DNA from: Prorocentrum cordatum
Lineage: Eukaryota
Length of the DNA: 55,995 nucleotides
NCBI GenBank assembly: GCA_963575745.1
Contig: CAUYUJ010000117.1
Location: 62,001 to 117,995, forward strand
Direction: 5' to 3'
Part shown: positions 21,240 to 47,670 of the stretch, piece after piece
Numbering within the stretch: the first letter of the stretch is position 1
How the letters are laid out: every line of letters begins with the position of its first letter
Notes under the pieces: model-generated
Database searches by the model: none
The model's input: the letters and a program-made list of their open reading frames with translations, nothing else
Told to the model about the DNA's origin: nothing
Made by a program: the position numbers and the translations under genes

Positions 21240-22381
21240 AGCCGCAGATGTAGACTGATTTGGCGCCACTGCTGGCGCCCCTGCGGGCGCTACGCAGGCT
21301 GCTCGGCCGCCAGTGCCACTAGGAACACGACCCTGGCTTGTCCTCCTTACCCGCAGGTTTGAGCAGGCCTTGGGCTCGGACGCGGGGATCAGGCCCACCG
21401 ATGACTTTGCCCTTGCCCCCTTGCCCATGCCAATGACTCCTGCCACAGCTGGAGGATTGCCCTCTGACGCTGCGGCAGGCTCGCCTGCGGTGGCACTGGC
21501 GGGACCAGTCTCGCCCTCGTCAGTTTTGCGCTTCTTGTCCTGGAGGCGCCCCTTGGCCTTCTCGTGCTCGGCCTTCGCGGCGTTGGCTTTCTCTCGGGCC
21601 TTGCCGGACAGCTCCGTGGCAGACCGTGGCAGGCTGTCCAGCAACTCTTTTCCCTCTTCTTGGCCTGTTCCAAGTCGGACTCCTCGACATTCACGTAGTC
21701 GGCCAGACCGAAGAGAGACTCCACACCGCTGAACTTGATGACCGCTTCCCCGTCAAGAAGCTGGTCAAGGCTGATCGTAAGCACCTCCTCTGCCCCTGGC
21801 TCCTTGGCGGGGACAGCCGCCGCGTGGAGCTCCCTGATGGCTTGGGAGTAGGTCTCGTCCGGAACTGCAAGCTTCGTACGTGTCGTTTCCACCTTGGTCC
21901 GCTGCTCGTCGAGCTGCGCCTGCAGGGCCTCGAGAGCGTCGCAGTGGTCGAGGAGCTGCTGCTCGAGCCGCTTGATCTCCTGACCAGCCTTGTCAGCACG
22001 GGCCTTTGGCGGGTCAGGTGGTTGTGGAAGCGAAGCCTTCCATGCCAACTCATGCTGCTTTGCCAGCTGTGCGTTGCCTGCCTTGCGGGCCAACAGGATG
22101 AACTGCTGCACCTCAGATTCAGCGAGGCCTGCCACAGAAGGAAGAGCGCCAGGAGGAACACCCTCGGCCACGCCCGACTGGCCTTTCGCCTTGCCCTTGG
22201 ACTTGGCTTTGCCGCCGTAGGTGTCCGCATTCTTGGCCTCGTCCGCTGGCTTGGCATGCCCCTGCTTCCAGTGACGGCCGCAGTGCTTGCACTTAGGCGT
22301 ACTCTACATATTTTTCCCGCAGCCACAAGACTCACAGCGCCAACGCGATAGATTGTCTCGCCAGGGTGCGCCATGCGACAT
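21240..22381 (-). pseudogene. Element C ORF1: N-terminal W-x-C-x2-C...N...C-x2-C zinc finger and coiled coil
   Basis: ATG at 22381 gives MSHGAPWRDNLSRWRCESCGCGKNM*STPKCKHCGRHW, in frame with ORF 21389-22171 (heptad-rich). One premature TAG and a later frameshift; the 3' end is approximate. Confidence 0.75.
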
Positions 22382-27100: not shown

Positions 27101-30100
27101 GCGTGCACAAAAGAGAAGCATAAATGAAGTCAGTGGCTTTCTGACGTAAGAAACGATGATGCATCTTGGAGATCGCGTTGCATTTATGAATGTTGCGCTG
27201 CGCGGCAGCCGTCCAAACATCACCACTGCCTTTGTGAAAAAAAGGCAACCTCCCCGAGCTTAAACCCCAAAGGCTAACGACAATGCGCAGCTGCTTTGAC
27301 CAGGATGGGAGCGAACACCTCGGACAACCCACAGGGATCAGCTTTAAACAACTCATCTCGAAAGAAATCAGGCCCCGCACTGCGGTGGGCCTGAGCCTTG
27401 CTGAACAACAGCTGCAAATCGAAGGGAGAGGGAATCGCCTCAATACTTCGGACGAGGGGGCCCAAGGGATTGATTCTACACTCGTCGTTATACTTACTGA
27501 TACCTTCACAGTACGAGAGCTCCTTGGCCCGTTCAATCTTCGCAAAATGAGCTTGCACAATTTCATGGACCTGTTCAGGGGTGCGGGCGGGTTTTCCTTG
27601 ACAATCCAACATAAACGGGAAACTCGGGGCCTGCTTCGGCGCTCGACCAGCGAAACGCAGAACACGGGAGAGATGGTTCCACTCACGTTGAGGGGCCCGT
27701 CCGTCGATGCTGGCCCTGACACTTGCCAGTTCCTTCTGCAGGAAGGCGTCTTTATCCAACTGAAAAGAACGAGCCACAAAAACGGACTTGCCTAGAAACA
27801 TGCTCTGAAGGCGAAGCATGAAGATATCAGCTCTTATGTCCTTGGGATCAGCACGGCGCGCAGAGATAACAAATTCTTTGGCGCATCCGCCGAGGTCTTC
27901 GAATATTCGCTTCCATTCCTGCATGATCGTCTGGTACGTCCTAGGCAACTGCAAGGCGATGTGGGGGGGCAGCTCAAAATCATCAAAACAAGAGCCGCCA
28001 TGCGACCCCGCAGACAATAGGTCTGGAGGTAACCCCAGGATCTCAGCAACTTGGCTAAGCCACTCCTGACTTTCCGTGTGCCCAAGTGACGTCACTGAAA
28101 GATCCCCTTTCCAAAGGCGGCAAGCAAAACGGCGGAGGGTATCAAGTTTCTGGGAGGACTGGAGAACGCCACTGGCTTTCATTAACACCCTCTTGATACC
28201 CCTCCTGACCCGAAGAAACAGAAGGGAGCGGTTAGACACATAGGGGGGTTGGGTGGAACGCACATCCTTGGGGAAGGCCTCAGCGGCCGCCGACATAACC
28301 TGATCCTGAACCGTGCTCAAGTGGGCATTCATGTCCGTCTCCCAAGGGATAGGCGGGATTTTGGCAATAGCCTCCCGAAAGGCCACCACCGCTTCAGGGC
28401 GCTTCGTTTTTAAACAGTCGAAGGAAGGGCAATCCTTTTTTTTCTTTCTGTGCACCGTCTCAGCCCAAGCAAATTTGACCTGCAGAGGAGCATGGTCAGT
28501 CTCTTCCATTCCGTTGTCGAAATGGTGCAGCACGCTCACCTCCTTGGCGTGCACAAAAAACGCTCTGGAGGTGGCAACATAGTCAATCCTGTGCTTTCCC
28601 CCTCCTTTCGCGACATACGTAAAACTCGGGTCGTGGGGGATAAAGGTATTGATCACTTTGAGCTCGAGGGAGGCCATTTTTTCATGGAAGACATCCCCAG
28701 GCTGGTCCTGACCCTGGATAAAGCCCTCAGCCCCAACGGCCTCACTAGTCACGTCGCCAACTCTGGCGTTAGCATCGACTAAAACCATGTCAATACTATA
28801 CTCCGAAATAAGACGCTCCGCCTGCTCCCAGAACTCCCGCACCTTAGGCATGCCTTGACGCACATGCGGGGCATGCAACGAGGCAACTCTGACAGCAAAG
28901 TGAGGCGCACTGACAGCCACAGCAAGGAAGCGGGGATGGGAGTGGAAGACAGAGTTGGTTGCAGCTCAGGAGGAGCTGCTTTCCTCCGGCTTTGCCATAA
29001 GGGGTCTCCCCATTAAACCAAACTTCGCACCCTAAGCCGGTGCCGTCAACCCCCGAGGAGACCGCCCAGAACTTACCTTGGCGGCGAATCCCTTTTTTGT
29101 TCCAGGCTTCTTGAAGCCCAACCACCAGGGCGTCGGTTTTTTCGAGTTGGGTCGTGATGATTTGAGTCCTCATGAATCTGCGCTTCCCAACCGACCCCAA
29201 CTTTTTCTCCACCGAGATGCTTTTTACATTGTACTGTATAACCGAGAAAGCGAAAGAGGCCTTGACCTTGATTCTTTCGTCTATGTGGGGCTCGGAGTCG
29301 GGCATGGGGACGCCCATGATCTGATGTCTTACTTTAAAGTCCTGCGGGCCATGAGGTAGCTGGTCCTCCGCATCAGCAGTGAACCGCTCAGGGTAGGCCG
29401 CGCGATCCTCAGCGCTCGCAAAATCAAGCCAACTCCACTCCAACGCGTGCACAAAAAGCGTGGTGCGCACAAGACGAGGCGGCAAGACAGTGACACGGTT
29501 GATGTTGCCCTGCATCACATTGCGGGCAATGAAATCAGCGAGTGTGTTCCAGGGATGCTCATTGTGGGCACGAATGTAACAGACCTCCAGAGGTCTGACA
29601 CGACGCACCGTCCGAATAATGGCAACAAGGAGACGCATAACCTCGTGCTTGGGGTCAATAGTAGAAACTCCATTGACAACATCAACAGCATTCTTGGAGT
29701 CAGAAAAAATAGAGACGGGACTCCTATCCTGCGAAGCAATAGATTCTCCTAAGATCTGCACGCAAATCCAAAATATGCCAAGGGCCTCATGGTGCAGAAT
29801 GTCTGGATCGTCTGTCGTTGGTCGAGCCTGGCAAGACGCCCCCCAGTCACAAGACCAGAAGCCCCCGAACGCGCAAAGGTTGTCAGAAAGCTTACGAACG
29901 CACACGGAAGCCCAAGCGCCCTGGGTACCATCACCAGGTTTGGTCGACCCGTCCGTAAAGAAGTGGAGCTCACGGTGAGGTTCGCTGCTAGGGGGGGAAT
30001 CCTCAAGAGCATTCCTGGACACCTCTGGAAGGTCAAAGCTGCTAACATCCTGGTCCAAAGGAGGGCAATTTACCTCCGTCAAAATCTGCTTGAGAGACGG

Positions 30101-32860
30101 CTGATCCGTAGGGATGTGTATCCTATAGAACGAATCTAAAAGCTCCCCAGCCTCGGGTGGGGGGTCGGGTGGGGGGGGGGGACAGGGTCGAGATCTCCAT
30201 GGGCTCCGTCCTGGGGAGGTCCTGGTGAGCGCACTGCCTGGCCTTCATAAGTAGGGCGGCTGTCCGTGACCGCGCTAGGGCAGGGAGAAGCAGGAATAGC
30301 TTCACACAGGCTGATCACGAATTTCGAATTGCCTGTGCTTGGTACGGGCAACCGCTTTTGTCCATCTTGGTCCGAGGTCTGCATGTGGCGGGAGCTGCAG
30401 ACGTCACTTGGGGCGTCGCATGGCTCCTGGGCTGCAACTACTTCTCCCTGCTGAGGCGGTGCTCCGCCGTTTGGCGGTACAACTGTGCTTCCACATTCAT
30501 CATTAAAAACCTGCGCTGCTCCCGTTGATGCGCGGGTGCGTAGCGGAGGACGGCGGCGCCCGCTGGGAGAAGGCAAATCCACGCTGGGCACGTCGTCGGA
30601 ATCGAAAACTCCTGGAGACTCGAATGCGTCAAACAAACGTGCTGGTGCTGGAAAGTGCCCCCACACGCTTCTGGGAAAGGGAATTGCCGTGGAAGTGACT
30701 AGTTCAGTCAAAACCTCACTCAAACAGCGAGCGCCTTCCACTGCAGACAGAACTGTCAGCCGCGTGACAGATCTGCTAGCACTGCTATGCACGCCTACTG
30801 TACCTCGTAGATGTGGTCGGTGGGGTCGTGGTTCTGGGATTGGCACCAGTGGTATGATGGCTCCGAATGCAGGGTCCGACACTTCAGAATCATACAGAAT
30901 ACCAATACCACCTGCCATGCGGTCCAACCGGTCTCGAGCCTGGTTTGCAGCTCTCCGCGCACGTTGAACATGTTCGGTGTGGCGTTCAGGGTCCTGTTCT
31001 TGTAGTCGTCTGAGGCTGCGCTGATACCGAAGCCTGCCACGACGTGCTCTCCGCCAGGCCCTGGAACAAATATCCCTAGCGATGGCCCAAGCATCAGCAG
31101 GATCCCGAATATCCGCCTGGACTGCTGGAAGCAATACCAACATATTGTGCACATATGGCGTACATATGGCCTGCCAATCCTGCATGGTCTGACCTGGACC
31201 AAGGATACTCTCCAAAATGTACCAATGTGGTACTTGGTCACGCACTTCATTCTCGATGCGACGCTGATGCCTTTGCGACTGTAGCCGAACAGGATCCATC
31301 TGTCTGGAATTTGCCCCACGTAGCGCAGTAGCTGCCACCGACACGGGTAACAGCTTGAGATTTGTCTGGACCATAGCAAACTCGTCAAACTCGCTGTGAT
31401 GGCTGTGATCCACGGGAGCTTCTCCATCTTGAACTTCGGAACTTTGCTCGATGTCTGCGTCCCATGGCGGAGGTGGCACGTACAATTGAAACTCGGGTGC
31501 GATGTAATGCTCTAGTGGTGCAGCTTTGACAACCGCTGGGTCTGCAGCATCGTGTGCAACCATCCACTCCAACAGCTGTTGTTCCTCAGCGATTGCTCGC
31601 TGTTGTTCTGCCGTGAGCAATTCATCCATGCCTCCTGAAGCCAGTAGCTGAGCCCGCCGCATGGCTGTGTCGAACATGCGCTGGAGTACATCGTCAATGT
31701 TGGTCTGGGCCGTGATGCCGAGCTCGCTAGCATGTCCCAAGCGGCGTCTGGCTGCGAGTAGTTCGTGCTGGTGGCGTCGCAGAATACCCAGCCACGCTAT
31801 CGGTCCAGCTCTCCATGCCACTGAGTAGCTACGCAGGTAGCTGAGACGGTGAGGGTGATCATTCGCGAATACAGACTCACATATATCACCTGCTACCGCC
31901 CGAATAGTGTCAGTATCTCCGTTGTGTAGGGGCCGCAAAAACTCATCATGAAGAAGACGGTTGCTTACCATGGGAATGCACCATGGCAGCCAATCCCGTC
32001 TCGCTTGATCCTCTGACCACAATGCTGAGTCGTAGGCCCAGCAGGGGCAAAATTGCTCAAGGTGAGACATCAAGTAGCTTCGGGCTGATAAGGCCCTTCT
32101 CTGCGCAGCTCGGTCATCACCTCGCTGTAGTCCCCCATGTGCCGTAGGATAGTGCTCATGGGGGGGGGGGCAACGCACGCTCCTTTGAATTGAGAGCTTG
32201 GCTCACCCGCATGGGCTCTAAGGGTGCGCGCCCCCCCCCCCCCATAGAACGCCATAGGGGTCGCACTTCGTCTGATTGTGAGGGCCCAAGGCCCTGTGCA
32301 CAATGTCTGCCCACTCCACGAGTGTGGGCTGGGAAGCCGCTTCCTTCCCCGAACTGGGAGCGGTCCAGCCGCGGTCCCTGTTGGCGACAGAGCCTCTGGT
32401 ATAGGCATGGGCCCCTGAGGCTGCCAGTCGCGGGGAACATCCTGGAGCATTGACGGCCCCATCTCCAGGGTGCTGGTACAGCTTGTAGAAGAAATGATGA
32501 TACGATTCGTCAACTACCAGGTCCCGAGGTAGAAGTGAAACTTGTTGGCTGGGTCTTGGCCGTGCTGTACCCGGCGGCGTGACGCCACACTGCTGCTGCC
32601 GAGGTACTCCTGACGGCGCAACTGCGTAGTGAGACTGAGGTATTGGCCGTGTAGATCCCAACGGCTTAGCGAAAGCAACTGTCATTGATTCTTTCAAATC
32701 AAAGCTATAACTGTGCAGACCATCAGGAGCTGCGTGTACTGGCTGAATTGGCTCTGTACGACTATCCATCGACGATCCAATCTTTGAATTATTAACGTAG
32801 TAGTAGGTCTCCTGCAGTCCCCAGTAGACCTTCTTCTTCTTCTTGGTGATCTCGTTCACA
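24129..32860 (-). pseudogene. Element D ORF2 polyprotein (frameshifted)
   Basis: RNase H at ~29520-29970: FFTDGS, HHEALG, FSDSKNA, IRAH, WNTLAD. EN at ~28480-29250: QYNVKS, GLQEA, SLHAPH, VDANAR, HRIDYV, TDHAPL. RT at ~26300-27390: SAGPD, CIDL, GSILAGDVF, FVDDL, NSAKTK, ILG. Fingers: CYTCG..HVGKTH and CPVC at ~25390-25515. Confidence 0.88.
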
Positions 32861-35243
32861 TGTCTGTATCCGCTCTGCGTTCGACTGTCTGAGATTTGCT
32901 CTCGGGTGTGGCACCCGTCGGCACCAGGCTGGCTCCCGTTTCGTCGGTAGCGGAGCGTCTGGCGCCCCGAGCCTTCTGTGGTGTGCTGGGTACTGCGACT
33001 GAGGCTGCTGTTGGTACCGCCGTCGATGCCGCCGCCTCTGGACAGAAACCAGGTTGCCGCAGGGAAGCCTGCAGCCTGGCAGCAGACTCCGCCGCTTCTG
33101 TCCGCTGGATCGCATCCAAAGCTTCCGCCTCCTCTACCTTTTCTCACAACTTCCAACGCTGCTGCCACCTCTGACCTCTCGTCCTGAGAGCTGAGGATCT
33201 CGATCGGGGCGGGGGCCGTGACCGAGTGGGAAGGTGCTGGAATGAACTCCGCTTCGAGGGGCTGAGTCGGCGAGATCTCGATGGACGGCTGGGCAGATGG
33301 CTGCGGGGTAGGCGGTATCCCCCAGAACTGAGTCGGTCCCATAGCCCCTCCGCGTTCCCACATAGACGCTGGTACTGTTGCTGGCTGCGCTGCTGGCGAC
33401 CCCTGGGGCTCCGACGCAGGAGGTGTAGGAGACAAGGGCGGGATCTGCGTCGGCGTCAGTGGTGTAGCTGAGTCGGGCGTAGGGCGAGGGGCCAGCCCCG
33501 CTGCCGAGAAGATCGCAACTGGGGCTCCCATGGGTCCTTTTCCTGGCTGATGCTGAAAAAGATGGGGCCCCACCTGGTAGGGATCGGTCTGGGCCCGGAG
33601 AGCTCCACGCCTTTGCCCAACTTGCCGCCCTTCATAGTCTCCAACTGCATCGCGATGTCGGGGGGCATCCCTGGTATCTGCTGCTGCTGCTGCTGGTGGA
33701 AGATGGCTGAGGCCTGAGCTTGTAGCTGAGCATGTTGCTGCTGAGCATGCTGAGCCTCCAGCTGGGCACGGGCCTGAATGGCTTGTTCGTGCTGAGCCTG
33801 CTGAGCCTGGGCTTGGGCTTGCTGGTTGCCCTGCAGCTGACCCTGCTGCATCTGCGGAGCCTGGGCATGATGTTGCTGCTGGAGATGTTGTTGCTGACCA
33901 GCCGTGGTCTGCACCTGAGCCACTTGCTGCTGAGCCGGGCTCTGAGCATGGGTCCATGTATTGCCAGATAACTGTTGCTGCATGTGCTGACCCTGGCCTT
34001 GGAACTGGTACATCAACTGCTGCTGCTGCTGCATGAAACTGGCCAAGAGAGCTTGCTGGTGCTGCTGTTGCTGGTCCATTTCCTCCTGACGCTTCAGCAT
34101 CACCGAGAAGCAGTCGGCCATCGTGGCGTTCTGGCTCGGTGTATACCCTAGGCGAGAGGGAATCGAGCGTCTGGCTTCCACAGCTGCCTGAGACGATGAC
34201 GGTAGTGACGGCCTGGACCTGGGCGGATATTCGCCCGTCGGCTGCTGCTGAGGCGATGTAGGCGGAGGGTGCTGCGGGGGCGGGCAAGGTGGGCCCTCTG
34301 AGGGCGCCACAGGAGCCTGCGCTTGGCCCGTCACAGCCGCCAAGTAACTCTGCCCATGGGTCCACTGATGCCTCTGTTGAGGAGCACCATCCATATTCAC
34401 GTCGCAGTTGGTCGTCGCCTCCTGTTGTGCCGCAGCTCGTTGCGCTGCCAAGGTAGCCTCCTCCTCCTGAATGGCCTGCTCGATGTCCTGCACTGACTGG
34501 CGAGACTCTCCGACCAACTCGATCAGCTCGTCCTCCTTTGACTCCAGATCTCGTAGCTTGGATTGGAGGTCCTTTAGCTGCTCCTCGAAGCGAGACTGAC
34601 GCATGCGTGCGTCTGCTAGTTGCTGGCCTAGAGGTTTCAAGAGCGTGATGGCGTAGCTGATCATGGCCATCTCTTCTCGCTCCTGAGTCTCCTCTTTGCC
34701 TGCCCTCTTCGCCGCAACCACAAGGCGAGCCAGAGTTGTGAGGCGCTCTTTCGCTCTCTTGCTCCAGTTGGCGCGGAGGTTCTCCTGAAGCGGGGGAGCC
34801 CAGCGCTCCCATTCTGGGTGGGACTCGGCCGTCTCCTTGAGGGCGGGGGTGAGCTTGGCGACCACCTGCTGAGTCTCGCGGTCGATCGCCTGAGCCTCCT
34901 GCCACGGCGGCTTGTGCTTGTCCCTGTTGCGCTGGGCAGAACGAGCACGAGTGGGCGCTTTGTAGGTAGTACCACATGCACAGTACCAAGAAGCTGCACT
35001 GTTGAGCTGACCGCAACCGCAACGCCAACGCTGGTCGGCACGCCAGGCCATGTACTGCTGATCTCGTCCTGCTTGGCTGAGGTTGCCCGCAGACGGGGCT
35101 GAATGATGGCGGGCCAACAGGCGCCGTGCCCTCCACACACGTAGAAGGGTCCTGGCAATGGACCTCTTCTTTCGGGCTCGGCGATGCCAGCTGGGCTCCG
35201 CTGGCTGGAAGGTATGCGTGATGGGCAACGGGGTGCCTCGCAC
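32856..35243 (-). pseudogene. Element D ORF1: zinc finger (WRCGCGQLN...CACG), coiled coil, Gln-rich and Pro-rich tail
   Basis: ORF 33456-35243 continues through frameshifts into the Pro-rich frame and the ORF ending at 32856. It sits directly after the SL and 5' UTR. Confidence 0.75.
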
Positions 35244-35348
35244 GCGGGAAGAAAGGATAGTGGTCAGCCTACGTGAGGTGCTGACGCACTGAAGGTCAGA
35301 CGACTTGCTGCGGGTCGGCCTCCCCAGGCGGACCCGTCAAGCCCAAAC

Positions 35349-35387
35349 CTTGAGCCAAAATGGCTACGGTACACAAATGGCTACGGT
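35349..35387 (-). other. Perfect DinoSL (35349-35370) preceded by a partial SL copy (35375-35387)
   Basis: Sense strand reads ACCGTAGCCATTT-GTGT-ACCGTAGCCATTTTGGCTCAAG-GTTTGGG. Confidence 0.97.
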
Positions 35388-35388
35388 A

Positions 35389-36325
35389 CCTCCTCCTCCC
35401 ACCTCCTCCTCCTCCTCCTCCTCCCCTCCTCCTCCTCCTCCTCCCATATCCTCCTCCCTCCGCCTCTCCCCTCCTCACTCCTCCCCCTCTCCACCTCCCC
35501 TCCCCTCCTCCTCCCACCGTCCCTCCTCCCTCCTCCCTACCACTCCTCCCTCCACTCCACCTCCCTCCTCCCTCCTCCCCCTCCTCCCTCCCTTCCCTCT
35601 CCCTCCTCCCTCCTCCTCCTCCCCTCCTCCCTCCTCCCATCCTCGCCCCTCTCCTCCCCTCCTCCCTCCACCCTCCTCTATCTCCCTCCCCCTCCCTCTT
35701 CCTCCAAACCTCCTCCCTCCCTCCCTACCCCCTCCCTCCCCCTCCCACCTCCCCCCTCCTTTCCACCCTCCACCCCTTCCACCCCTCCATCCAGGTATAT
35801 CCCCATCCTATCCCTCCTCCTCCTGCTCCTCCCTGCTCCTCCTGCTCCTCCTGCTCCTCCTGCTCCTCCTCTCCTCTGACTGCTCCTCCTGCTCCCTCCT
35901 GCTACTCCCTGCTCTTTTCTGCACCTCACCTGATCCTCCTGCTCCTCTCCCAGCTCCTCCCATCCTCTCCTCCTCCTCCTACCTCCTCCCTCCCTCCCTC
36001 TTCCTCCCTCCTCCTCGCTCCCTCCTCCTCCATCCTCCTCCCCTCCCTCCACACCTCCCACCCTCCCTCCTCCTTCCTCCTCCTTATCCTCCGTCCTCCT
36101 CCTTCTCCTTCTCCTTCCTCCTCCTCCTCCTCCTCCTCCCCCACTCATTCCTTCTCCTCCTACCTCCTCATCTTCCACCTCCTCCTCCTCTTCCTCCTCT
36201 CTCCCTCTCTCTCCTACCTCCTCCTCCCACTCCTCCTCCCTCCACCTCCCCTACCTCACCCCCTCCTGCTCCTGCTTCCTGTCCTCCATCAAGGACCTCC
36301 CCTCCTCCTCCCTCCTCCTCCTGCT
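35389..36325. repeat. ~0.9-kb degenerate (CCT)n tract
   Basis: Directly visible; it abuts the 5' end of element D. Confidence 0.93.
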
Positions 36326-36674
36326 CCATCGAAGGTTTTTCCCTTTTCGAAGGTTTTCCCGCGCGGCTTTATCAGAAGCTCTCTGCGGCTTCGGAGAAGG
36401 CGTGGCGAGCTTCTCGGAGTACCAGACACCTCCTGGGCCTTCCGCAGAGGCCCAACCCCTCTCTACATTCGCCCTTGGGCGCGCCGCCGATAGGAGGGAA
36501 TAGGTGACCCAAATTTCAGGTTGGGGGGGGTGCGGGTTCCATGTTTTTTCCCAACCATCCTGTGGTGTTGGGTCCTCGTTTTGAAGAGACGGTGCCCCGC
36601 GTTCCCCTCCTCCTTCCTCCTCCCCCTCCTCTCTCCTCCCCCTCCTTGCCTCTGCTCTCGGCACACCTCTCACG

Positions 36675-37448
36675 CGTTTCGTAGCCCCATAGGGAGCTCC
36701 ACCGAAGGCCCCAGTGGGGGTGTTCGCATGCGGTTCCCCCACCCAGGGCAGCGTTTCGTGGCCCCATAGGGAGCTCCACCGAAGGCCCCAGTGGGGGTGT
36801 TCGCATGCGGTCCCCCCACCCAGGGCAGCGTTTCGTAGCCCCATAGGGAGCTCCACCGAAGGCCCCAGTGGGGGTGTCCACATGCGGTTCCCCCACCCAG
36901 GGCAGCGTTTCGTGGCCCCATAGGGAGCTCCACCGAAGGCCCCAGTGGGGGTGTCCACATGCGGTTCCCCCACCCAGGGCAGCGTTTCGTGGCCCCATAG
37001 GGAGCTCCACCGAAGGCCCCAGTGGGGGTGTCCACATGCGGTTCCCCCACCCAGGGCAGCGTTTCGTGGCCCCATAGGGAGGAGCTCCACCAAAGGCCCC
37101 AGTGGGGGTGTCCACATGCGGTTCCCCCACCCAGGGCAGCGTGTCGTGGCCCCATAGGGAGCTCCACCGTAGGCCCCAGTGGGGGTGCCCGCATGCGGTT
37201 CCCCCACCCAGGGCAGCGTTTCGTAGCCCCATAGGAAGCTCCACCGTAGGCCCCAGTTGGGGTGCCCGCATGCGGTTCCCCCACCCAGGGCAGCGCTTCG
37301 TGGCCCCATAGGGAGCTCCACCGAAGGCCCAAGTGGGGGTGCCCGCATGCGGTTCCCCCACCCAGGGCAGCGTTTCGTAGCCCCATAGGGGGCTCCACCG
37401 AAGGCCCCAGTGGGGGTGTTCGCATGCGTCTCCCCTACCCAGGGGTAG
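36675..37448. repeat. 77-bp tandem satellite, ~10 copies
   Basis: Unit CGTTTCGT(A/G)GCCCCATAGGGAGCTCCACCGAAGGCCCCAGTGGGGGTGT..CATGCGGTTCCCCCACCCAGGGCAG starts at 36675, 36752, 36829, 36906, 36983, 37060, 37140, 37217, 37294 and 37371. Confidence 0.97.
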
Positions 37449-37762
37449 CGCCACCGAAAACGATATTCATATTTGCGACATTCACAACTGCATATGGTTG
37501 GGTCCTTCGCCAGGCTAATTCCATGTTCCCCGACCCCCCCACACAGGAAATGGCGGGCAAATTGAGGCCTTCGGGTTGGGTTGGGGTGGTTTGGTGGGTG
37601 GTGAATAGGAGGTGCCGGTGGTGGTGGAGCTGTTGGGGGCCACGATCCATGTCCCGAATCGCATGCGGCGCCCAGGGGAAACACCCGCTCTGCTGCCTGC
37701 GGAGTCTCGCTCCGGCACCCTGGCCAGAATCGAGCGTCGCACCTGCGGGCCCCAAGACTGTG

Positions 37763-37982
37763 TCACCACCACCAACACCACCACCACCATCACCACCACC
37801 ACCACCACTATCACACCACCACCACCACCACCACCACCACCACCACCACCACCACCACCACCACCACCACCACCACCACCACCACCACACCACCACCACC
37901 ACCACCACCACCACCACCACCACCACCACCACCACCACCACCACCACCACCACCACCACCACCACCACCACCACCACCACCT
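37763..37982. repeat. (CAC)n microsatellite
   Basis: Directly visible. Confidence 0.97.
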
Positions 37983-38580
37983 ACATTCCCCCTCCCTCCT
38001 CCACTCTCCTCCTCCCCTCCTCCCTCCTGGGGGAGAGAGGGGGTGAGGAAGGTGGTGGTGGTGGTGGTGTATACTCTGGGGCGCCGTAGCTCCGGCCGGG
38101 GTCCCCCCGCATTGCGAGCAGAGCGAAACCACCTCACCCAGCAACGACGGCGCAAGGGGAGCGACAGGAGGGGAGAACGACGGGTGAGGCACGCGAGAGG
38201 GACCCCGGAACGAGGCGAAGAGGGAGCATGTTCCTCCCCAGGCGGCGCGCCAGGGGGGGAGAGACTGAAAGGGGGCAAGCCTTGCCAAAAGGCAGCGGGG
38301 TTTCTCGGAAGCCCCCGCGCCTTCCGAGAAGCCTCGCGAGCTTCCTCTGAAGCCGCGGGCGGCCTCTCAGCGGGTGCGAGGGCTTCTGCGAAGGCCTACC
38401 TCCTCCCACTCCCATACCCCCAGGCGATCCCAGAATCACATCGATAAGTCGCACCAGCGATCGACACGAAGGGGGCCGGCGGAGATCGGCACCCGAGTCG
38501 GGAGACGTCGATTCGGCGGATCTCGGCAGGCTAGTACGGCCTCCAGTGAGGCATCGGAGCCCCAAAATCGGACTCCGAAG

Positions 38581-38754
38581 TTGGGCGTGGCTTAATGGGG
38601 GGGTCATAGATGAGGGGTCGGAATAAGCACCCTTCCCTGCCCATTTCGGGCCCCTCCGGAGCCCCAGGGGGCTCGTTTAGGTACCGTTTGGGTATCTTTT
38701 CGGACCACCCTCGCCCCCCCCGCAAGTATGACCCCCCCATCACGCGACGCCCAG
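38581..38754. mobile_element. MITE-like foldback
   Basis: TGGGCGTGGCTTAATGGGGGGGTCATA versus reverse complement TGGGCGTCGCGTGATGGGGGGGTCATA, with an inner inverted pair GGTCGGAATAAGCACCC / GGGTATCTTTTCGGACC. Confidence 0.7.
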
Positions 38755-41150
38755 CGAAATCGAATCGAACTGGTGTCGGGAGCCACCGACATGGAGCCGT
38801 GCCGAATCGGAGGCGTCGAAGTGAGCCCTGCCCCCCGTGGGCTCGCCGCCGACTCTCGCTCCCGGCCCCCCTCCCACGACCCCCCCGAGATCCTGATCTC
38901 GTTCCGAACGCCGACCCCCCGAGGTCTCGACCCCTTCCCCGGGGCCGGTTTTTCATCCCGAGTCGTTTCTTGCCCGTCGCCTGCCCGCCCCCCGGCGCCC
39001 GCTCGCCGTGCTACCACGTTCAACACAACACCCAGTACTCAACAGCGTCCGTTCCCAACACAATGCCACCGGGTACTCAACAGATCTCGTCTCCAACGAC
39101 ACACTCAGTACTCACCAGCATCCCGCTGCAAGGGATAATCCTTTCCCTGAGCCGGGTAAGGGCCCCCAGAGGCCGAACATGTCGAAAAACCTGCCGTCGT
39201 TGATCTCTCCGTGGCCCGACAGGGGATCTGGCACGCCCTTGGCGTCTTCGTCTGTGGCCCGCGCGCATCTGGCGTATTGAAGGGGCCCTGGGACACGCAA
39301 ATAAATACACACAAATAAAAAGGATTCCCCATATTTTCACATATTTTCTGGGTTTCTGTCTTCCCGCCAAACTCCCATATTTTCCAATATTTTCTGGGGA
39401 ATCGACGATTAATTGTGTCTGTGTGTTTTTTCCCCTCCTGACGTATGGCTGCTTCGTCCGTTCGAGGGGGGGGGGGCGGGTCTCGCCGCCGACTCCCGTG
39501 CCTCCGCGGCTGCACGCGGGAGTGAGCCCAGGCGCGGCGGGCGTGCGGGTGGGGCGAGGCAGATGCCCGCCGCTGCTCCTCCTCCTCCTCCTCCTCCTCC
39601 TCCTCCTCCTCCTCCTCCTCCTCCTCCTCCTCCTCCTCCTCCTCCTCCTCCTCCTCCTCCTCCCTCCTCCTCCTCCTCCTCCTCCTCCTCCTCCTCCTCC
39701 TCCTCCTCCTCCTCCTCCTCCTCCTCCTCCTCCTCCTCCTCCTCCTCCTCCTCCTCCTCCCCCTCCTTCTCCCCTCCGTCTCCGGGCCCATCCTGCCACC
39801 CTCAGGGGGCGGCGCAGGGGGACGCACACACATCGACACACACATAGATGCCAGGATGTCCTTCTATTGTGACATGCTCCCTGGATCGTCCGCTTCCCCT
39901 CCATTCCCCATCTGCTCCACGATCTTCATGAAGACCGCGTGTTTGCGTCGATGAGTCCCTCCTGACTCCTCCTGACTCCTCCTCCACTTCCTCCTCGGTG
40001 ACCAAGGAGCCCGGGGACGACCCGAAAGCCCTGTCCCTTATCCTCACGACCTCCTTTGCTCCTTGCCGACCTCCTCATCCCCCCGAACCCCTGGGAAAGC
40101 CTGAGGAGGACGAGCGCTGAGGATGTGCAGAAAACGTTGAGACGTAGCACCTGTCACCAGGAAGTGCTCTGGCAGCAGAAACTCTGGAGAAAGAGGAGCA
40201 GGCTGAGGAGGCAGAAGGGGGAGGAGGACGATGAGGAGGCATGAGGGGGCAGGATGGCGAAGGCATGAAGCGCTATCCTCCCCGGCCCATTCCTTCCGCA
40301 CTCCTCCACTCCCGGCCGATACCCTAGAACAGCGCCCATTGACTATACTATGCTTGAACCCTCCAGGCCCCGCCCCAACACGGTACGGTGCACAGTCCTG
40401 TGGCCCTGGGGGCCGAAACAATTGTGCACCGTACCATCCCCTGGGGTCGAAGATCGACGACGCCTCGGGAGAGGCCAACTTTGGACGCCCGAAATGGGCA
40501 CGGAAACCACAGGTACAATGTCAAACAACAAATGTTGTTCAAAACCGACACCGGCCGCTGTTGGGCAAGCGGCCTTCTGCCTCAACTAACTGGACATACC
40601 CCGCGGCGGCACGGACAACGAACCCGGCCCAAAATGGACGGGAACCGCTGTTGGTCGTTGTAACCATATTTTCCGTACCTAATTCTGGAGGGGAAGAAGA
40701 CGGGGACCATGACAAAGACTGAACGCGGGAACGTTGTCTCGATCCTGGTCACTGTCAGTCTTGGTCAGCGTAAGTTCCTGGATCATCCTCGCAAATCGGC
40801 GACGGTCGGCATGGACCATGACAAAGATTGGCATCGACAAAGTCCCGCGACATCCTGGGCATGGTCCTCGTGCTTCTTCCCTCGGGGCCCGCACTCCTCG
40901 GGAACCCCTGGAAGCCCTGACCCGCTCCCCAGGGCCGGCTCTTCATCCCGAGTCGTTTCTATTGACGACCCCGGGGCCTGGCGAGGGCCCCCAGGAGGCG
41001 GAAACTGCGAACTGCGAAACGCCTCCGCTTTGAGTGTCTCGAGACGTTCGAGGTCTGGGTCTGCGTCCCCGCTCCTCTTCCCTCCAGTCTCGATCGTACC
41101 GGCCAGCGCGGCACGGTGCCCGACCCCAGGTCGTCCGCGGGCTCCCTCGA

Positions 41151-41534
41151 CAAGCTGGCGCCTCCTGGCGCTGGGAGGGGCTGGGGCAACCAGCTGCGTG
41201 AGCTGGTTCGCTCGCCCCCCTTTGCTGGAGGCCCCCTAGATGGAGTCCGAGTAGATAGGGTCGGAGGATCTCGCCGCATGGCCGATACATCGGCGATGCA
41301 TCGGCCATGCACTGGCGACGTCGGCGATGCATCGGCGACGTCGGCGTGGAGAACTTTGGGCCGCACATCGAGCCGCATCGCTGCTGCATCGCCGATGCAT
41401 CGGCGATGCGGCGCGATCCTCCGACCCCATCTGCGCCGACCTCATCCAGGAGGCCTAGATTTGCTCCTCGGCAAGCTGGCGCCTCCTGGCGCTGGGAGGC
41501 GCTTGGGGAACCAGCTGCGCGAGCTGATTCGCTC
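41151..41534. mobile_element. Palindromic element (41236-41449) between two ~63-bp direct repeats
   Basis: Arms GGGTCGGAGGATC(T/G)CGCCGCAT match at 21/22, with internal ATCGGCGATGC repeats. CAAGCTGGCGCCTCCTGGCGCTGGGAGG...TTCGCTC occurs at 41151 and 41472. Confidence 0.75.
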
Positions 41535-42257
41535 AGGCCCCTTGGCACCCCCCACCCCCCTCTCGGGCGCGGCCTTCCCGACCCCTAGCACACCATCCCC
41601 TTCCGTGACGTCATCCTCGCCTTTCGAGCTCCCCTCCGGCCGCATAACATTCGCCTTGGGGCGAGGCGAGGGGGACGTCGCGCATGGTCTGCTGAGGAGG
41701 AGGAGGAGGAGGAGGAGGAGGAGGAGGAGGAGGAGGAGGAGGAGGAGAGGGGAGGTGCAGGAGGAGAGGAGGAGGAGGAGAGGAGCAGGAGGAGCAGGAG
41801 GAGGAGGAGGAGAAGGAGGAGGAGGAGGAGGAGCAGGAGGAGCAGGAGGAGGGGGTCGGTTAGGCCGCCCCTCGCCCTCTCGCGCGGCCCGAGGCCCCGC
41901 GGTGGCAGGACGACTGCTGCTCCCTCGCCCGCCCGCCCAGCAGGAGCTGCCGCGGGCCCCAGCGGCGCGCCAGCCCACGGGCCCCAGAGGCGCGGCGCGG
42001 TGCCGCGCGGGGGTCGCCCGCGGGCCCAGCCCCCGCAAGGGGAGGAGGATCGAGGAGGAGGAGCGAGGAGGATCGAGGAGGAGGAGGAGGAGGAGGAGGA
42101 GGAGGATCGAGGAGGAGGACGAGGACGAGGACGAGGAGGAGGATCGAGGAGGACGAGGACGAGGACGAGGAGGAGGAGGAGGAGGAGGAGGGGGAGGAGC
42201 ATCGAGGAGGAGGAGGACGAGGAGGAGGAGGACGAGGAGGAGGAGGAGGAGGAGGAG

Positions 42258-45200
42258 TTTTTAAAACCGCGTGCTCCCGCCCGTGAGTGGGTGCCCCTGG
42301 TCTCGGCACCCCGCGCAGGCAGAACGGCCCGAGGCGGGGTGGGCCAGCGGCCTCATCTCACGGCGTCGTACTGCCGCCACTCAATGACTCATGGAGTCGC
42401 CCCGTGAGCGGCGGCAGTCTGAAGATATGCTGCCGCCGCCCTCTCAGAGCTTGAGGAGCAGCCTGATGGACGGCCGCAGCCGCTCCTCCGCTCTGCGCTC
42501 TTCCAGGGACCGCCCTGGCCGCTGGTCCCTGGACTCGTGGGCTTTCACGGCCGCCTTGCCTGGCGCAGGGCTGTGGCCTAACCCCTCGCCACGCTGGGGC
42601 GCATTGCGGCCTAGCCCCTCACCGCGCCTGGGAAAATCGTGGCCTAACCCCTCGCCACGCTGGGGGCTGCTGCGGTCTAGCCCCTCACCGCGCTGGGGTG
42701 CTCCGTGGCCTAACCCCTCGCCGCGCAGGGGCCTATTGCGGTCTAGCCCCTCACCGCGCTGGGGTCCCACGTGGCCTAACCCCTCGCCACGCAGGGGCCT
42801 GCTGCGGTCTAACCCCTCACCACTATGGGGTCCACCGTGGCCTAACCCCTCGCCACGCTGGGGATCGTTGCGGTCTAACCCCTCGCCGCGCTGGGGTACT
42901 CCGTGGCCTAACCCCTCGCCGCGCTGGGGCCTGCTGCGGTCTAACCCCTCACCGCGCGGGGGAACGCCGGGTCTCGCACTGTCCCCGTCCTCGGTGCTAC
43001 TGCCCACTGGCTCGGGCGAAGTCCCCCGACTATGCCACTCGCTGTGTTCGCGGTTCACGTGGTATCCGCGGGCCAAGCCCTCCCCCTCGCGTTCAGTCTG
43101 TCGGTGTCCCAGGGTATGGGTCCGCTCTGTTAGTTGCGAGGTCCTGTCTACCACACTGTTGGTCAAAAGGTCCGCGTCATGCTCACTGGGCTCGTCAGGG
43201 ACCTCCGCCTCGAGCCTCTGCTTGCCTTTGGCACTGCGGTCTACCCCCTCACCGCGCAGGGGATTGCCGTGGCCTAACCCCTCGCCACGCAGGGGTCCCA
43301 TGCGGTCTAACCCCTCACCGCGCTGAGGAAAGTCGCCGAAAAACTTCTCCAAGTCCCGCTGCGGGTCTGTGTCGTCGTAGCCTGCCGTCGTCTCGGGCTG
43401 CGCAGTTTTGTGGCCTAACCCCTCGCCACGCGGGGGAACGCCGAGTCTCGCACTGTCCCCATCCTCGGTGCTACTGCCCACTGGCTCGGGCGAGGTCCCC
43501 CGACTATGCCACTCGCTGTGTTCGCGGTTCACGTGGTTTCCGCGGGCCAAGGCCTCCCCCTCGCGTTCAGTCTGTCGGTTTCCCAGGGTATGGGTCCGCT
43601 CTGTTAGTTGCGAGGTCCTGTCTACCACACGGTTGGTCAAAACGTCCGCGGCATGCTCACTGGGCTCGTCAGGGACCTCCGCCTCGAGCCTCTGCTTGCC
43701 TTTGGCACTGCGGTCTATCCCCTCACCGCGCTGGGGTCCTCCGTGGCCTAACCCCTCGCCACGCTGGGGTCCTCTGCGGTCTGCCAGGTGGTACCCTATG
43801 CTGTGCTGTACATCTGGGATCTGCTGGTGGTTGTCATCGCTGTCCTGCTTGTCTACGGGCTGCTGGAGGCAATCCTCGCTGTTCTCCTCTTCAAGGAAGT
43901 GGTCGAGGTCTGCCATGTCCATGGTGCTCCGTCCTGCTGGTGGGGGACGGGCACCCCTCTGCATCCCGTCTGGCGCAGGGCTGTGGCCTAACCCCTCGCC
44001 ACGCTGGGGTCCTCTGCGGCCTACCCCCTCGCCGCGCAGGGGTCCATGGTGGCCTGTCCCCTCTCCGCACAGGGGCCTGCTGGAGGGTTTCTGCTGCTCC
44101 TCCGCCCTTCCCGCCTCCAGGGACCGCTCTGGCTGCGGTACCCTGGGTCCCCTGGGCCTCTCGAGCTCGGGCGCTGGCGTTGCCGTGCGCAGCTCGGCGG
44201 GGCTGCTGGTGGCCCTGGCCTCTGGGTTCCTCCTCGGCTGTCTGGCTGGAGCCCTGCTTGGCACTCGCACTGCTGCTTGCGGTCGCGGGCTGCGGCTCCT
44301 CACCACTGGCTCAGTCACGCCCAGGAACTGCTCAGCCATTGCTCTGCGCCGCTCTGCCTCCTTCGGGTCCTGCTGCTGGATCTGCCTGCGCGCCTCTCCG
44401 CTGTTGAGCCATGCCAGGCGGCAGATCTCCTCCGCCGCTCGGCGCTGGCTGCGCTGGCGGCTCGGCCCTGACACGTTGCTGAACAGCCTCTGGTAGACGC
44501 CAGTCTGCAGCGCCCTCAGCACATGGGGCACGCACGCAGCCTGCCACGATGGCCAGCCCTGTTCGCCCTCTTTCTGGCTCCAGCAGCCTGCCAGCGACTG
44601 CATGAGCTGCTCGAGCCTGTTCCTCTTGAGCCACGCCACCTCCTGCTCGGGGTCCTGGTCAGCTTCTCCTTTGTTGTGTCGAAGCCTTGGGTGGAGCAGG
44701 CCGGCCTCATCGGCTTCGCTCACGAACTTCATCAGGTCGGGCCCCACTGGCTTGGTCAGCGTTACTGCCACCTGCACAGCCGTCTGCATCAGGCTGTTGG
44801 CGTCGTGCCTCTGATCAGGTCCTGCCATGGTCTCCATCTCCTGGTTGCTCGGCTCACCCTCCAGCTCTGGGGCTTCACTGTCTGGGGTCGAGTCATCATC
44901 GTCCAGGTTCTCTGGTGACCACTCTCGGCTGGCCTCCGCTGTTCTCGGCAGCGGCCTGCGCTCGCTGCTGGGGATGCTGTGCGCTAGGATGTTGTTCCTT
45001 CTGTTCTGGAAGGCGTCCATGTGCACTCTTGCTGCCTGCTGCCTTGTACCGTACGGGAGGGTAAGCATCCTGGTCATGAGCCTCCGTCGCGCGCGGTGCG
45101 TGTTGCGCCAGACTTCTTCGCAGAAGTCCTTGATCTGCTGAAGCTCCTGCACGGTGACGGCCCTGGTCTGCTCTTGCGTGTCCGTTCCGCCACCCACATT

Positions 45201-47670
45201 GGTGATGGCCAGGAGGTACGGTACGCAATGCTCCATCCAGTCGTCCATGTCGTCCCAGACGTCTTGGTCGACCATGTTCATCCACTGCTCCGCGTAGCCC
45301 TCCATGTGGTCCACGAGCCTCCAGCTGGCGTGGACGACAGAGTGCGGATGGCTGGGTGGCTGCTGTGGAGCTGGCTGCGGGTCCCCTGCCTCTGAGATGT
45401 CCCCGTCCAGGTCGGTCGCCTCGTGGTTACTCAGGCCGAGCTTGAAATCACCAGGCCTGGTGATCTCGTTGAGACCCTCATCAGCTGGGTCTGCTGCTGG
45501 CTTAGCTCCTCTTGGCAGCTTGCCCCTCTGCATGCCCGCCAAGACCCGCCGCCCTGCTGCTGTTGGGGGCTGACATGGCCTTGCCAGCTTCCTTGCCACT
45601 CCTGCCGCGATTCTGCTCTTGTGGTCCCCAAGGTAGCTGGTGCCGCCACATTTCTCGCACCAGAGCCAGCCATGGGTGAACTGCGTCTTGTGGGAGACGT
45701 GCACCACCTGCGTGCCGATCTGCACCGCCTTGAAGTCGAGCCTGACGTTGCCGTGCTGGTCCTGGTGGCCGCCGTACTTCCCGAGGCATTCTCCCGTCTC
45801 TGCCAGCCAGTCTCTGATGCTTTGTCCTTTGGCTGGGCCACTGCGACACGTTGCACACCACCATCGCGGATGTAGCTTGCGCAAGTCGTGTCCCAGCTGG
45901 GCTGCCCTGTCCCTCGCCGTCTGCGGCTTTCGGCGCTTGGCCTTGGGACGCTGAGGGGCCTTGTTGGGGTCCTCCACCGTCACCGCCATGTTGATGGCCA
46001 GCAGCCGGTTTTGCACCGCCGTGGCGATCTGGTCCCTGATCTGCTGCTGCGCCATGATGGCTGGATCCAGTGCTCCATGCTCCGCTCCCCAGCCTGCGTA
46101 CTTGTCTGCCATCTCGTTTCCTATGACCCACCAGGTGGGACCATTCCACCTCTCCAGCTCAGCTGGGTGCTCAACCCGGTGGCTTGGGATGTGGTGGCCC
46201 ATGATGGTGTCCGTGCTGTTCTGCAGCTGCTGCTACGTCTGGAGCCAGAGGTCGTAGTTCGTGCTCCTGTCGTCCAGATCCTCAGGATCCTGGATCTGCT
46301 TGAGTGCGTCCAGGGCGTACTTGCAATCGCTGGCTATGTTGAGCCCCCTGGCTGTCGCCGCCGTGGTGTACCCGATGGCTTTGCTCGTGGCGGTGAGCTC
46401 TGCCCGTGGCACCGTGTGCGGCGCCCTGATCGTGCCGTACCAGGCGGCCACTTCCTGCGGACGTCCTTGTTCGTCGAACCTGAAGGCCACCACTGCCCAG
46501 CCGCAGCGTCTGAGGCGGGGGTCCTTGGCCGTTTCCCCTGCACCGCCTGAGCCGTCCGTGAAGACATAGTCTGCTCGAACCTTGTACCCTGACTGGGCTG
46601 CCGCCTGAGCCTCTTCGCTGGTGCAGAAGATCTGCGCCGCCTTCGCCGCGTCCTCGTCTGGGTCGACCTTGGCTGCCCAGGCCGCTGGCGGGATGCCTCG
46701 GAGCCAGAAGTGCAGGTCTTGCCGCTGGTCCAGCGCGTCCTTCGCCTTCTTCGCCAGGTCGGTGTCATTGCTGTGCCCTATCTCTGCATTGGCAGGGCAT
46801 GCGTAGTAGCGGTGTTCCTCTGTCTCTATCGCCTCGCCGCATCTCGCGCAGGTGTCGTCGCCTTCTTGGTTGAGGTTGGCCGCCCTGCGACGCTCCCTGG
46901 TCCAGATGCCCGCCACCGCTATGGTCTCCAGCATGGCTGCCTCTGCATGCTGTCCTTTGCGCCTCCTCCTCCTCAGGTGGCGCTGCAGCTGATAGAGGTC
47001 GCCTCCAGCCTGCAGTCCTTCCCCACTGCGATGGCCAGCTGCCGGCTGCCAGAGCTGCTGCTGCGCGCTCCGCTGGACTTCATGCAGGAGCGCGCCGACG
47101 TGAGGAATGTCATCTGGCTTGTAGGCCCACTCGTCACCTGCTGGGCTGATCCAGCTGTCCAGGCGTCGCGGTATCCAGCCTAACCCAAGCAGCTGCGCGA
47201 TGACCCCTGCCATAGGCCCCTTGACCTGCTGCCACCTGCGGTTGGGTTCCAGGGCGTCCAGCTTGGCGTAGAGCAGGAGACAGCCTCTCTGGTACCTCTT
47301 GAGCTCCGTCGGGTGGTCGACTATGGTGAGCCGGAACTGCTTGATCTGGTCGCCGATGGCTCGGGTTACTGCCTCTTGCATTCCCCTCTGGAGCAGGAGG
47401 ATGGTGGACGTGCAGCGTCCAGCCTTGTGTCCGCCTGTGAGGAGCGCTGCCTCCGTAGCCCTGGCCGACTTCGCCTCCGTGGGCGTGATGCCGTGCGCTG
47501 GTAAGTCCCAGGCCTGCTGGCAGTAGGCACCTGCTGAATAGACCTTTGCCGCGCCTCTGGCGTCCGTCTTCGCTAGGTCCTTGAGCTTGGCCACCCTCTG
47601 CTTGGCCTTGGCCTGGCGCGCGGCATGGGTTGGGTAGGTGCGTCGACGCCCCAGGGGCGAAGCCACTTCC
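42258..47670 (-). mobile_element. Element E: 5'-truncated LINE (post-RT region, CCHC, RNase H, Cys motifs, long accessory C-terminus)
   Basis: ORFs 46233-47897 and 42444-46202 are one frame split by a single TAG. Motifs: CARCG..HRYYACP; RNase H FTDGS, RAELTA, ASDC, IPSH, GNEMAD; WWCATC; WCEKCG. It ends in TTTTAAAAA next to a microsatellite. The 5' junction is approximate. Confidence 0.9.
42570..44075 (-). repeat. In-frame 33-bp coding minisatellite (GEGL-[GH/DR]-xxP[Q/L]R) and a 474-bp-period duplication inside element E
   Basis: About 12 consecutive units at 42570-42960, with further units near 43240-43325, 43410, 43710-43780 and 43980-44075. Blocks ~42940-43310 and ~43414-43784 are near-identical. 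Confidence 0.93.

Follow-up and report, generated by a model that had tools for sequence, protein, structure and literature searches.

A helical domain matching no named family in the libraries searched recurs in LINE-type elements of Prorocentrum cordatum

We analyzed a stretch of 55,995 nucleotides from the dinoflagellate Prorocentrum cordatum (assembly GCA_963575745.1, contig CAUYUJ010000117.1, positions 62,001 to 117,995; hereafter, the window), whose DNA is GC rich and eukaryotic and contains many long spurious open reading frames (ORFs). At least three elements of the long interspersed nuclear element (LINE) type lie on its minus strand: element D (about 35336-24335), element E (about 47900-42444), and a third element (about 22303-16757). 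Element D reads, in order, as a possible 5' ORF, an ORF with two copies of a small domain (D1 and D2; hereafter, the module), RNase H, an endonuclease-like region, and a weak match to the reverse transcriptase (RT) family RVT_1. Element E reads as RNase H, a Cys-rich stretch, two more copies of the module (E1 and E2), and an acidic tail with 33-nucleotide repeats. Sequence comparison indicates that these four segments are homologous copies of one protein domain.

The core of D1 occupies positions 31834..32082 of the minus strand (residues 41 to 123 of the translated ORF P0001, by hidden Markov model [HMM] envelope), with an N-terminal helix that begins near 32124, and that of D2 occupies 31021..31266 (minus strand; P0001 residues 313 to 394); with its N-terminal helix and its Arg-rich C-terminal helices, D2 extends over about 30895-31290. 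Downstream of the RNase H of element E, the first copy, E1, lies at 45075..45326 (minus strand; P0002 residues 303 to 386) and the second, E2, at 44376..44624 (minus strand; P0002 residues 537 to 619). The motifs quoted for the four segments in a preliminary description of this DNA were all found at these places in the minus-strand translation. The isoelectric points (pI) of copies 1 and 2 were 6.2 (nearly neutral) and 9.8 in D, 5.0 and 10.7 in E, and 6.3 and 8.9 in a relative, P0022, and the order was reversed in another, P0026 (11.2 and 4.9). An acidic or neutral first copy with a basic second copy is thus common to D and E.

When each segment was searched against the six-frame translation of the window (tblastn), its best nonself matches were the other three (E values from 3.4 × 10−4 to 0.27), with the exception that for the query E2 an unrelated match (E value = 0.32) outranked D2 (E value = 0.97). 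Pairwise BLAST between the long ORFs of D and E was marginal (E values of 0.003 to 0.04; D2-E2, 0.003). We also tested Smith-Waterman pair scores against 2000 shuffles. The scores of D1-E1 (68, z = 8.5), D2-E2 (69, z = 7.1), and D2-E1 (62, z = 7.1) were reached by 0 of the 2000 shuffles and that of D1-E2 (50, z = 4.9) by 2 of the 2000, while the within-element pairs scored 70 (D1-D2, z = 8.8) and 74 (E1-E2, z = 10.1). The similarity between D and E that had been proposed from the motifs is therefore significant after shuffling, for D1-E1 and D2-E2 in particular. Profiles built on one side retrieved the other: an HMM built from 16 sequences of the D side and none of E matched E1 (E value = 1.6 × 10−9) and E2 (1.4 × 10−8) among 756 six-frame ORFs, the next match being at 0.38, and one built solely from 33 E-family sequences matched D2 (3.2 × 10−4) and D1 (1.4 × 10−3), with the next match at 0.65.

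In element D, the ORF that bears D1 and D2 (32202-30136, minus strand) overlaps the RNase H ORF (30244-28844) by about 108 nucleotides at 30136..30244 (minus strand), where there is a frameshift, and the second ORF has no Met before RNase H; the two ORFs were probably one polyprotein originally, which is now frameshift broken. RNase H itself (29510..29977, minus strand) lies downstream of D1 and D2 and upstream of the endonuclease. The usual acidic motifs can be read in its translated sequence, and the ORF has a partial match to Pfam RNase_H (P0005 residues 173 to 243; E value = 5.2 × 10−5, 23.9 bits, below the 25.8-bit cutoff). The endonuclease region (EEP/APE-like; 28400..29230, minus strand) was recognized by eye from the translations. 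A frameshift splits it where ORFs 30244-28844 and 28965-27274 overlap (28844-28965), and neither ORF has an endonuclease match in Pfam. A weak RT core follows at 26444..26761 (minus strand; residues 75 to 180 of ORF 26983-26078; RVT_1 E value = 0.0028, 17.8 bits, below the cutoff). RNase H thus precedes the endonuclease, and the order from RNase H through endonuclease to RT runs over 24335-30244 of the minus strand. LINEs carry RNase H after RT, and the order in D would be unusual if this is one single element.

The possible 5' ORF of D (33456..35336, minus strand), which we infer to belong to the element, translates into a pair of Cys-rich W-x-C-x-C-G motifs, a coiled-coil-like stretch, and a Gln-rich region. 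It has no Pfam match, and comparison with the N terminus of the E family gave nothing significant (best E value = 0.033, on the stretch of module 0). A zinc finger and coiled-coil N terminus common to the D and E families is therefore no more than a visual impression.

Among sequencing runs, one DNA run (X1; share, 0.47) matched element D, and no RNA run was listed. A total of 483 contig pieces of one DNA run, 80 to 100% alike, filled 30 of the 30 bins of 24300-35400 (103 pieces at ≥99% identity, 170 at 95 to 99%, 112 at 90 to 95%, and 98 at <90%). Because these pieces cover every bin, the whole of D, modules and all, is a multicopy repeat whose copies have diverged, and diverged contigs of X1 also span the possible 5' ORF. 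The D-like contigs are short, and among those inspected none joins the modules to RNase H; searches for homologous proteins with the D cassette (378 to 1204 amino acids) or the D RNase H ORF gave no match. The domain order of D accordingly rests on the copy in the window together with the repeat coverage, as no intact full-length relative of D was seen. Just upstream of D1, at 32158-32250, the minus strand has homopolymer runs (about 11 C and about 13 G), and other X1 copies show deletions of 2 and 4 bases there and a 202-nucleotide stretch replaced by 179 other letters, so that the reading frame into D1 is uncertain in the window copy.

Element E aligns with residues 1493 to 2464 of a 2464-residue relative, P0018, and is therefore 5' truncated. 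Its RNase H (46053..46565, minus strand) lies upstream of E1 and E2 and contains the single in-frame stop of the E polyprotein (46233-46235), at a position where P0018 has Lys. The Pfam RNase_H match falls below the cutoff in E (ORF 47900-46233; P0004 residues 446 to 536; E value = 1.3 × 10−4, 22.6 bits) and above it in P0018 (33.9 bits). After E2, an open C-terminal tail (42444..44300, minus strand) combines an acidic stretch with tandem repeats of 33 nucleotides (11 residues). Tandem Repeats Finder placed the period-33 arrays at 42571-42964, 43234-43323, and 43983-44075, where they encode an 11-residue unit rich in Gly, Arg, and Glu. Part of the tail, the acidic stretch, resembles residues 703 to 953 of P0018 (31% identity), upstream of the probable third copy of the module. 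The E protein is 93 to 98% identical to entries of P. cordatum named "unnamed protein product," and all 11 of 11 E-family proteins come from this species.

Module-bearing relatives of E (P0018, P0016, and P0015) have Pfam matches to Exo_endo_phos, RVT_1, and RNase_H, and the module stands in a LINE polyprotein context, sharing its strand and ORF series with endonuclease, RT, and RNase H. The four-repeat profile found a candidate third copy at residues 676 to 751 of P0016 (independent E value = 2.3 × 10−4; region about 669 to 762), and a D-only profile matched the same region in P0016 (0.0012) and, only weakly and over half its length, in P0010 (0.024) and P0018 (0.055). A third copy, placed between endonuclease and RT, is thus probable in full-length relatives of E. 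P0018 has no tblastn match (E value ≤ 10−3) to the RT region of D but matches the RT of the third element. The preliminary description had placed the modules at opposite ends of the two polyproteins; the D copies do lie upstream and the E copies downstream of RNase H, but the picture is too simple because of the probable third copy between endonuclease and RT. These results support a module position that varies, relative to RNase H, endonuclease, and RT, between element types.

The third LINE-type element has, on the minus strand, an ORF with a Cys-rich knuckle-like motif and a coiled-coil-like stretch (21389-22303), an endonuclease (19772-20673), an RT (18503-18933), and RNase H (16757-17437). 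The module was not detected in it, the next-best match of the module HMM anywhere in the window having an E value of 0.29. Because a LINE with endonuclease, RT, and RNase H matches has no detectable module, the module is accessory rather than universal in the LINEs of the window, as had been proposed. Between D and E lie a long CCT-rich low-complexity tract (35389-36327) and a 77-nucleotide tandem repeat (36674-37444; 10 copies, 94% matches, higher-order period of 388).

Next, we searched a profile of the four repeats against 1,835,955,588 representative proteins. There were 40 matches at an E value of ≤10−3, 10 at ≤10−10, and 5 at ≤10−30; three (P0038, P0041, and P0045) were removed by eye as tandem-repeat false positives, and the other 37 look genuine. 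Among 30 matches that were looked up, 8 were from P. cordatum (NCBI), 9 from a EukProt set, and 13 from ENA contigs of 0.5 to 4.2 kb. Iterating the search locally brought the total to 65 instances spread over 48 proteins; several proteins have two or three copies (P0022 and P0026 have two), and single-copy members exist as well. In P0053 (1068 residues), the end of an RT is followed by a coiled-coil-like stretch, one module (residues 520 to 610), and Exo_endo_phos (772 to 954), an order that reflects either a third architecture or a gene prediction spanning two adjacent elements.

The EukProt set is labeled Pyramimonas sp. CCMP1952, by name a green alga, and comprises P0019, P0020, P0023, P0035, P0039, P0040, P0043, P0049, and P0052. 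Identities reach 80% between P0019 and D2, 74% between P0020 and D1, and 67% between P0023 and E2. From these alignments, the Pyramimonas-labeled members look like dinoflagellate sequence that entered by contamination or mislabeling, and horizontal spread appears less likely. Two gene models of P. cordatum that are neighbors on one contig, P0033 and P0055, join the module to the C-terminal AAA domain and AAA lid of an ATPase, either as an exonized retroelement fragment or as a chimeric prediction.

We then looked into whether the domain already has a name. Pfam-A (2025) placed no family on the module in 12 ORFs of the window (E value ≤ 0.01) or in 24 relatives. At an E value of ≤1, no Pfam family occurred in more than 2 of 30 alignment members, and the strong matches to AAA and AAA_lid_3 fell only outside the module, in P0033. 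Searching PDB sequences with the module profile gave nothing significant (best E value = 0.19). Foldseek returned nothing at an E value of ≤0.001 from the PDB and BFVD, a VIA-align structure search gave the domain no name, and the ESM Atlas gave no usable match for the E cassette or P0025. The best structural matches, at noise level, were to small helical bundles: UFL1 (8qfc_B), cullin repeats (8q7h_A, 7z8b_C, 1ldk_A, and 8gq6_C), RomX (8zna_A), and the ColE2 Rep DNA-binding domain (3vw4_B). Gag capsid appeared in noise-level Foldseek rows only (HML2 capsid; E values of 6.7 to 9.9, template modeling [TM] scores of 0.24 to 0.25) and not among the best 50 of VIA-align. A literature search of main article texts, blind by its nature to an unnamed domain, found no description. 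The profile HMM suggested as a check on the preliminary description thus retrieved relatives and no named Pfam family on the module, and the earlier failure to assign a known family holds across Pfam, PDB-sequence, and fold searches. As far as these searches reach, the domain has no named family.

Conservation was counted over 37 instances sharing <70% identity. A Trp (35/35) stands upstream of the motif D-W-x3-C-[VI]-P-[YF]-[VL]-x3-L, in which W (34/37), C (31/37), and P (32/37) are conserved and which is followed by a variable loop. Then comes A-x-[DE]-[IL]-C-x2-A-[WF], with A in 28/37, D/E in 32/37, C in 34/36, and W/F in 30/33. After the core, an Arg-rich helix contains one invariant Arg (30/30), the sole invariant polar residue, and in many members L-x2-L-x3-D-P and one more helix come next. 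The core spans about 85 to 90 residues, or about 110 to 130 with the N-terminal helix and the Arg-rich C-terminal helices. AlphaFold2 modeled D2 (30958-31290, 111 residues, alignment of 30 sequences) as seven helices with a mean predicted local distance difference test score (pLDDT) of 94.4 and a predicted TM score (pTM) of 0.82, and E1 (45033-45350), the most divergent copy, with a pLDDT of 77.1, a pTM of 0.61, and the same helix order; since both models used the same relatives, their agreement is not independent. The models point with confidence to a compact all-helical bundle and bear out the helical nature suggested earlier. In W-x3-C, as in C-x3-W, the Trp and the Cys point to the same side of their helix, and the conserved Trp/Cys/Pro faces of the two helices most likely pack as a hydrophobic core.

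We weighed several other explanations of these data against the reading of the module as an accessory LINE domain. That the resemblance is due to chance or to the composition of GC-rich open frames has a negligible probability: the single pairwise BLAST E values are marginal (0.003 to 0.04) and the window has numerous long spurious ORFs, yet the shuffle tests, the cross-validated profiles, the family search with its 37 independent relatives, and a model with a pLDDT of 94 together refute an artifact. A metal-binding or redox module, in which the two Cys bind zinc, possibly across two copies, or form a disulfide, is very improbable. Both Cys are nearly invariant (31/37 and 34/36), and the frequent pairing of copies could supply four ligands. 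However, each domain offers two conserved potential ligands and no His, single-copy members occur, each Cys stands one helical turn from a conserved Trp, as in a buried helix-helix interface, and the confident AlphaFold2 fold is metal free. Zinc fingers, knuckles, and ribbons have three or four conserved Cys/His ligands, and the 37 instances have two Cys, no conserved His, and no acidic or Ser/Cys/His constellation. On these counts, the metal or catalytic site raised in the preliminary description appears unlikely.

A second pair of alternatives concerns the origin of the module. The two-domain unit could have moved en bloc between LINE lineages, D1 being orthologous to E1 and D2 to E2, which we consider unlikely. 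It would account for the higher scores of D1-E1 over D1-E2 (68 versus 50) and of D2-E2 over D2-E1 (69 versus 62), for the acidic or neutral first and basic second copies of D and E, and for the Q-Q-D-P tail kept in both second copies, and approximately unbiased (AU) tests do not reject D1+E1 (P value = 0.19) or D2+E2 (P value = 0.16). But D1+D2 (0.23) and E1+E2 (0.30) are equally unrejected, and the free maximum likelihood tree of 37 instances was a star with neither grouping, in which 21 of 34 inner branches were open and only family-level groups were starred. The within-element scores of 70 and 74 equal or exceed those of the same-rank pairs, so that the earlier claim of a resemblance by rank, first copy to first and second to second, is not confirmed. 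D-side profiles gave much stronger matches to the other D copy than to E1 or E2, the tail motif is present in many single-copy members, and in relatives of E a probable third copy sits at another place in the protein. With a star tree and none of the four groupings rejected, homology of the cassette as a whole finds no confirmation, and the evidence taken earlier as a sign of shuffling between lineages equally fits ancestral presence with rearrangement and independent duplication. Somewhat less probable still is a cellular dinoflagellate domain captured by LINEs, with most members being host proteins. P0022, P0025, P0026, P0037, P0042, and P0044 lack RT, endonuclease, and RNase H, the P0033 and P0055 gene models link the module to an AAA lid, and SymbioLINE-Dnmt (PMC5890265) is an earlier example of dinoflagellate LINEs that captured a host domain. 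Against this origin, the RT-less matches are short contigs or partial models of 0.6 to 2.6 kb, which is what fragments of long elements should look like; the alignment of P0022 and P0026 with D extends past the core; every long module-bearing protein examined has LINE domains; and the module region of D is a diverged multicopy repeat.

The accessory-domain reading is the best overall explanation: the module is probably an unnamed helical, noncatalytic domain of LINEs that serves binding or ribonucleoprotein (RNP) assembly. That it belongs to a genuine family of accessory retroelement domains is highly probable. It would be an optional unit of LINE-type polyproteins in a Prorocentrum-type dinoflagellate. 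In D, its two copies precede RNase H, endonuclease, and RT, with which they probably formed a single polyprotein that frameshifts have since broken; in the 5'-truncated E, with its one premature stop, the two copies follow RT and RNase H. LINE proteins usually carry nonenzymatic parts that bind nucleic acids or partners ahead of the endonuclease, between it and RT, and beyond RT and RNase H, and ORF1p and other nonenzymatic accessory domains serve RNP assembly in other LINEs. We favor a binding or scaffold role because the module is optional, often repeated, and placed where LINEs carry such parts. From its residue pattern, it is probably nonenzymatic and acts by binding. The Arg-rich helix with its invariant Arg would be the most likely contact surface, through which the module may bind or scaffold the element's RNP assembly by contacting RNA, DNA, or a protein partner. 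A nucleic acid ligand is a tentative suggestion, less likely than not: the instances have a median pI of 6.3 and many are acidic, which weighs against it. Uniform basic charge as a sign of nucleic acid binding was rejected on the same median pI. Net charge ranges from −9 to +8 between instances. A bolder proposal, that a new fold-level family acts as an RNA chaperone or target-chromatin adaptor that replaces ORF1p, suits histone-poor condensed chromosomes, and spreads among unrelated LINEs as an acidic-plus-basic cassette, seems to us a long shot.

LINEs form a large part of dinoflagellate genomes, and to our knowledge their proteins are almost wholly uncharacterized. The signature of the domain is clear (W, W-x3-C-x-P, [DE]-[IL]-C-x3-[WF], and an invariant Arg), and naming it would improve the annotation of P. 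cordatum, in which models with the module now appear as "unnamed protein product," "Secreted protein," or AAA ATPase fusions, and would flag gene models derived from retroelements. It also offers a tractable case of LINE lineages that rearrange or exchange nonenzymatic domains. By itself the finding opens no long-standing question; it is a moderate surprise, useful for annotation and for the study of retroelement evolution.

Among known systems, the closest in kind is the ORF1p of LINEs, which in L1 consists of a coiled coil, an RRM, and a C-terminal domain (CTD). Like ORF1p, the module is a nonenzymatic, element-encoded part beside endonuclease and RT, often in more than one copy, and in D and P0053 it follows a coiled-coil-like stretch and precedes the endonuclease. 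Unlike ORF1p, it has no Pfam match to an ORF1 family, RRM, or zinc knuckle (no RRM, CCHC knuckle, or Transposase_22-type signature was found by Pfam in the module-bearing ORFs or their relatives); it is predicted to be all helical, it is apparently fused into the polyprotein instead of being encoded in a separate ORF, and further copies follow RNase H or, probably, stand between endonuclease and RT. The nearest precedent in the literature, SymbioLINE-Dnmt, comprises LINEs of Symbiodinium with an acquired DNA methyltransferase ORF1, according to de Mendoza et al. 2018 (PMC5890265). Whereas their extra domain belongs to a known host-derived enzyme family, the module is small and helical and has neither a named family nor a catalytic signature; both add a nonstandard domain to a dinoflagellate LINE backbone of Exo_endo_phos, RVT_1, and RNase_H. 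LINEs with accessory domains are a known kind of element, to which the module adds a new domain family.

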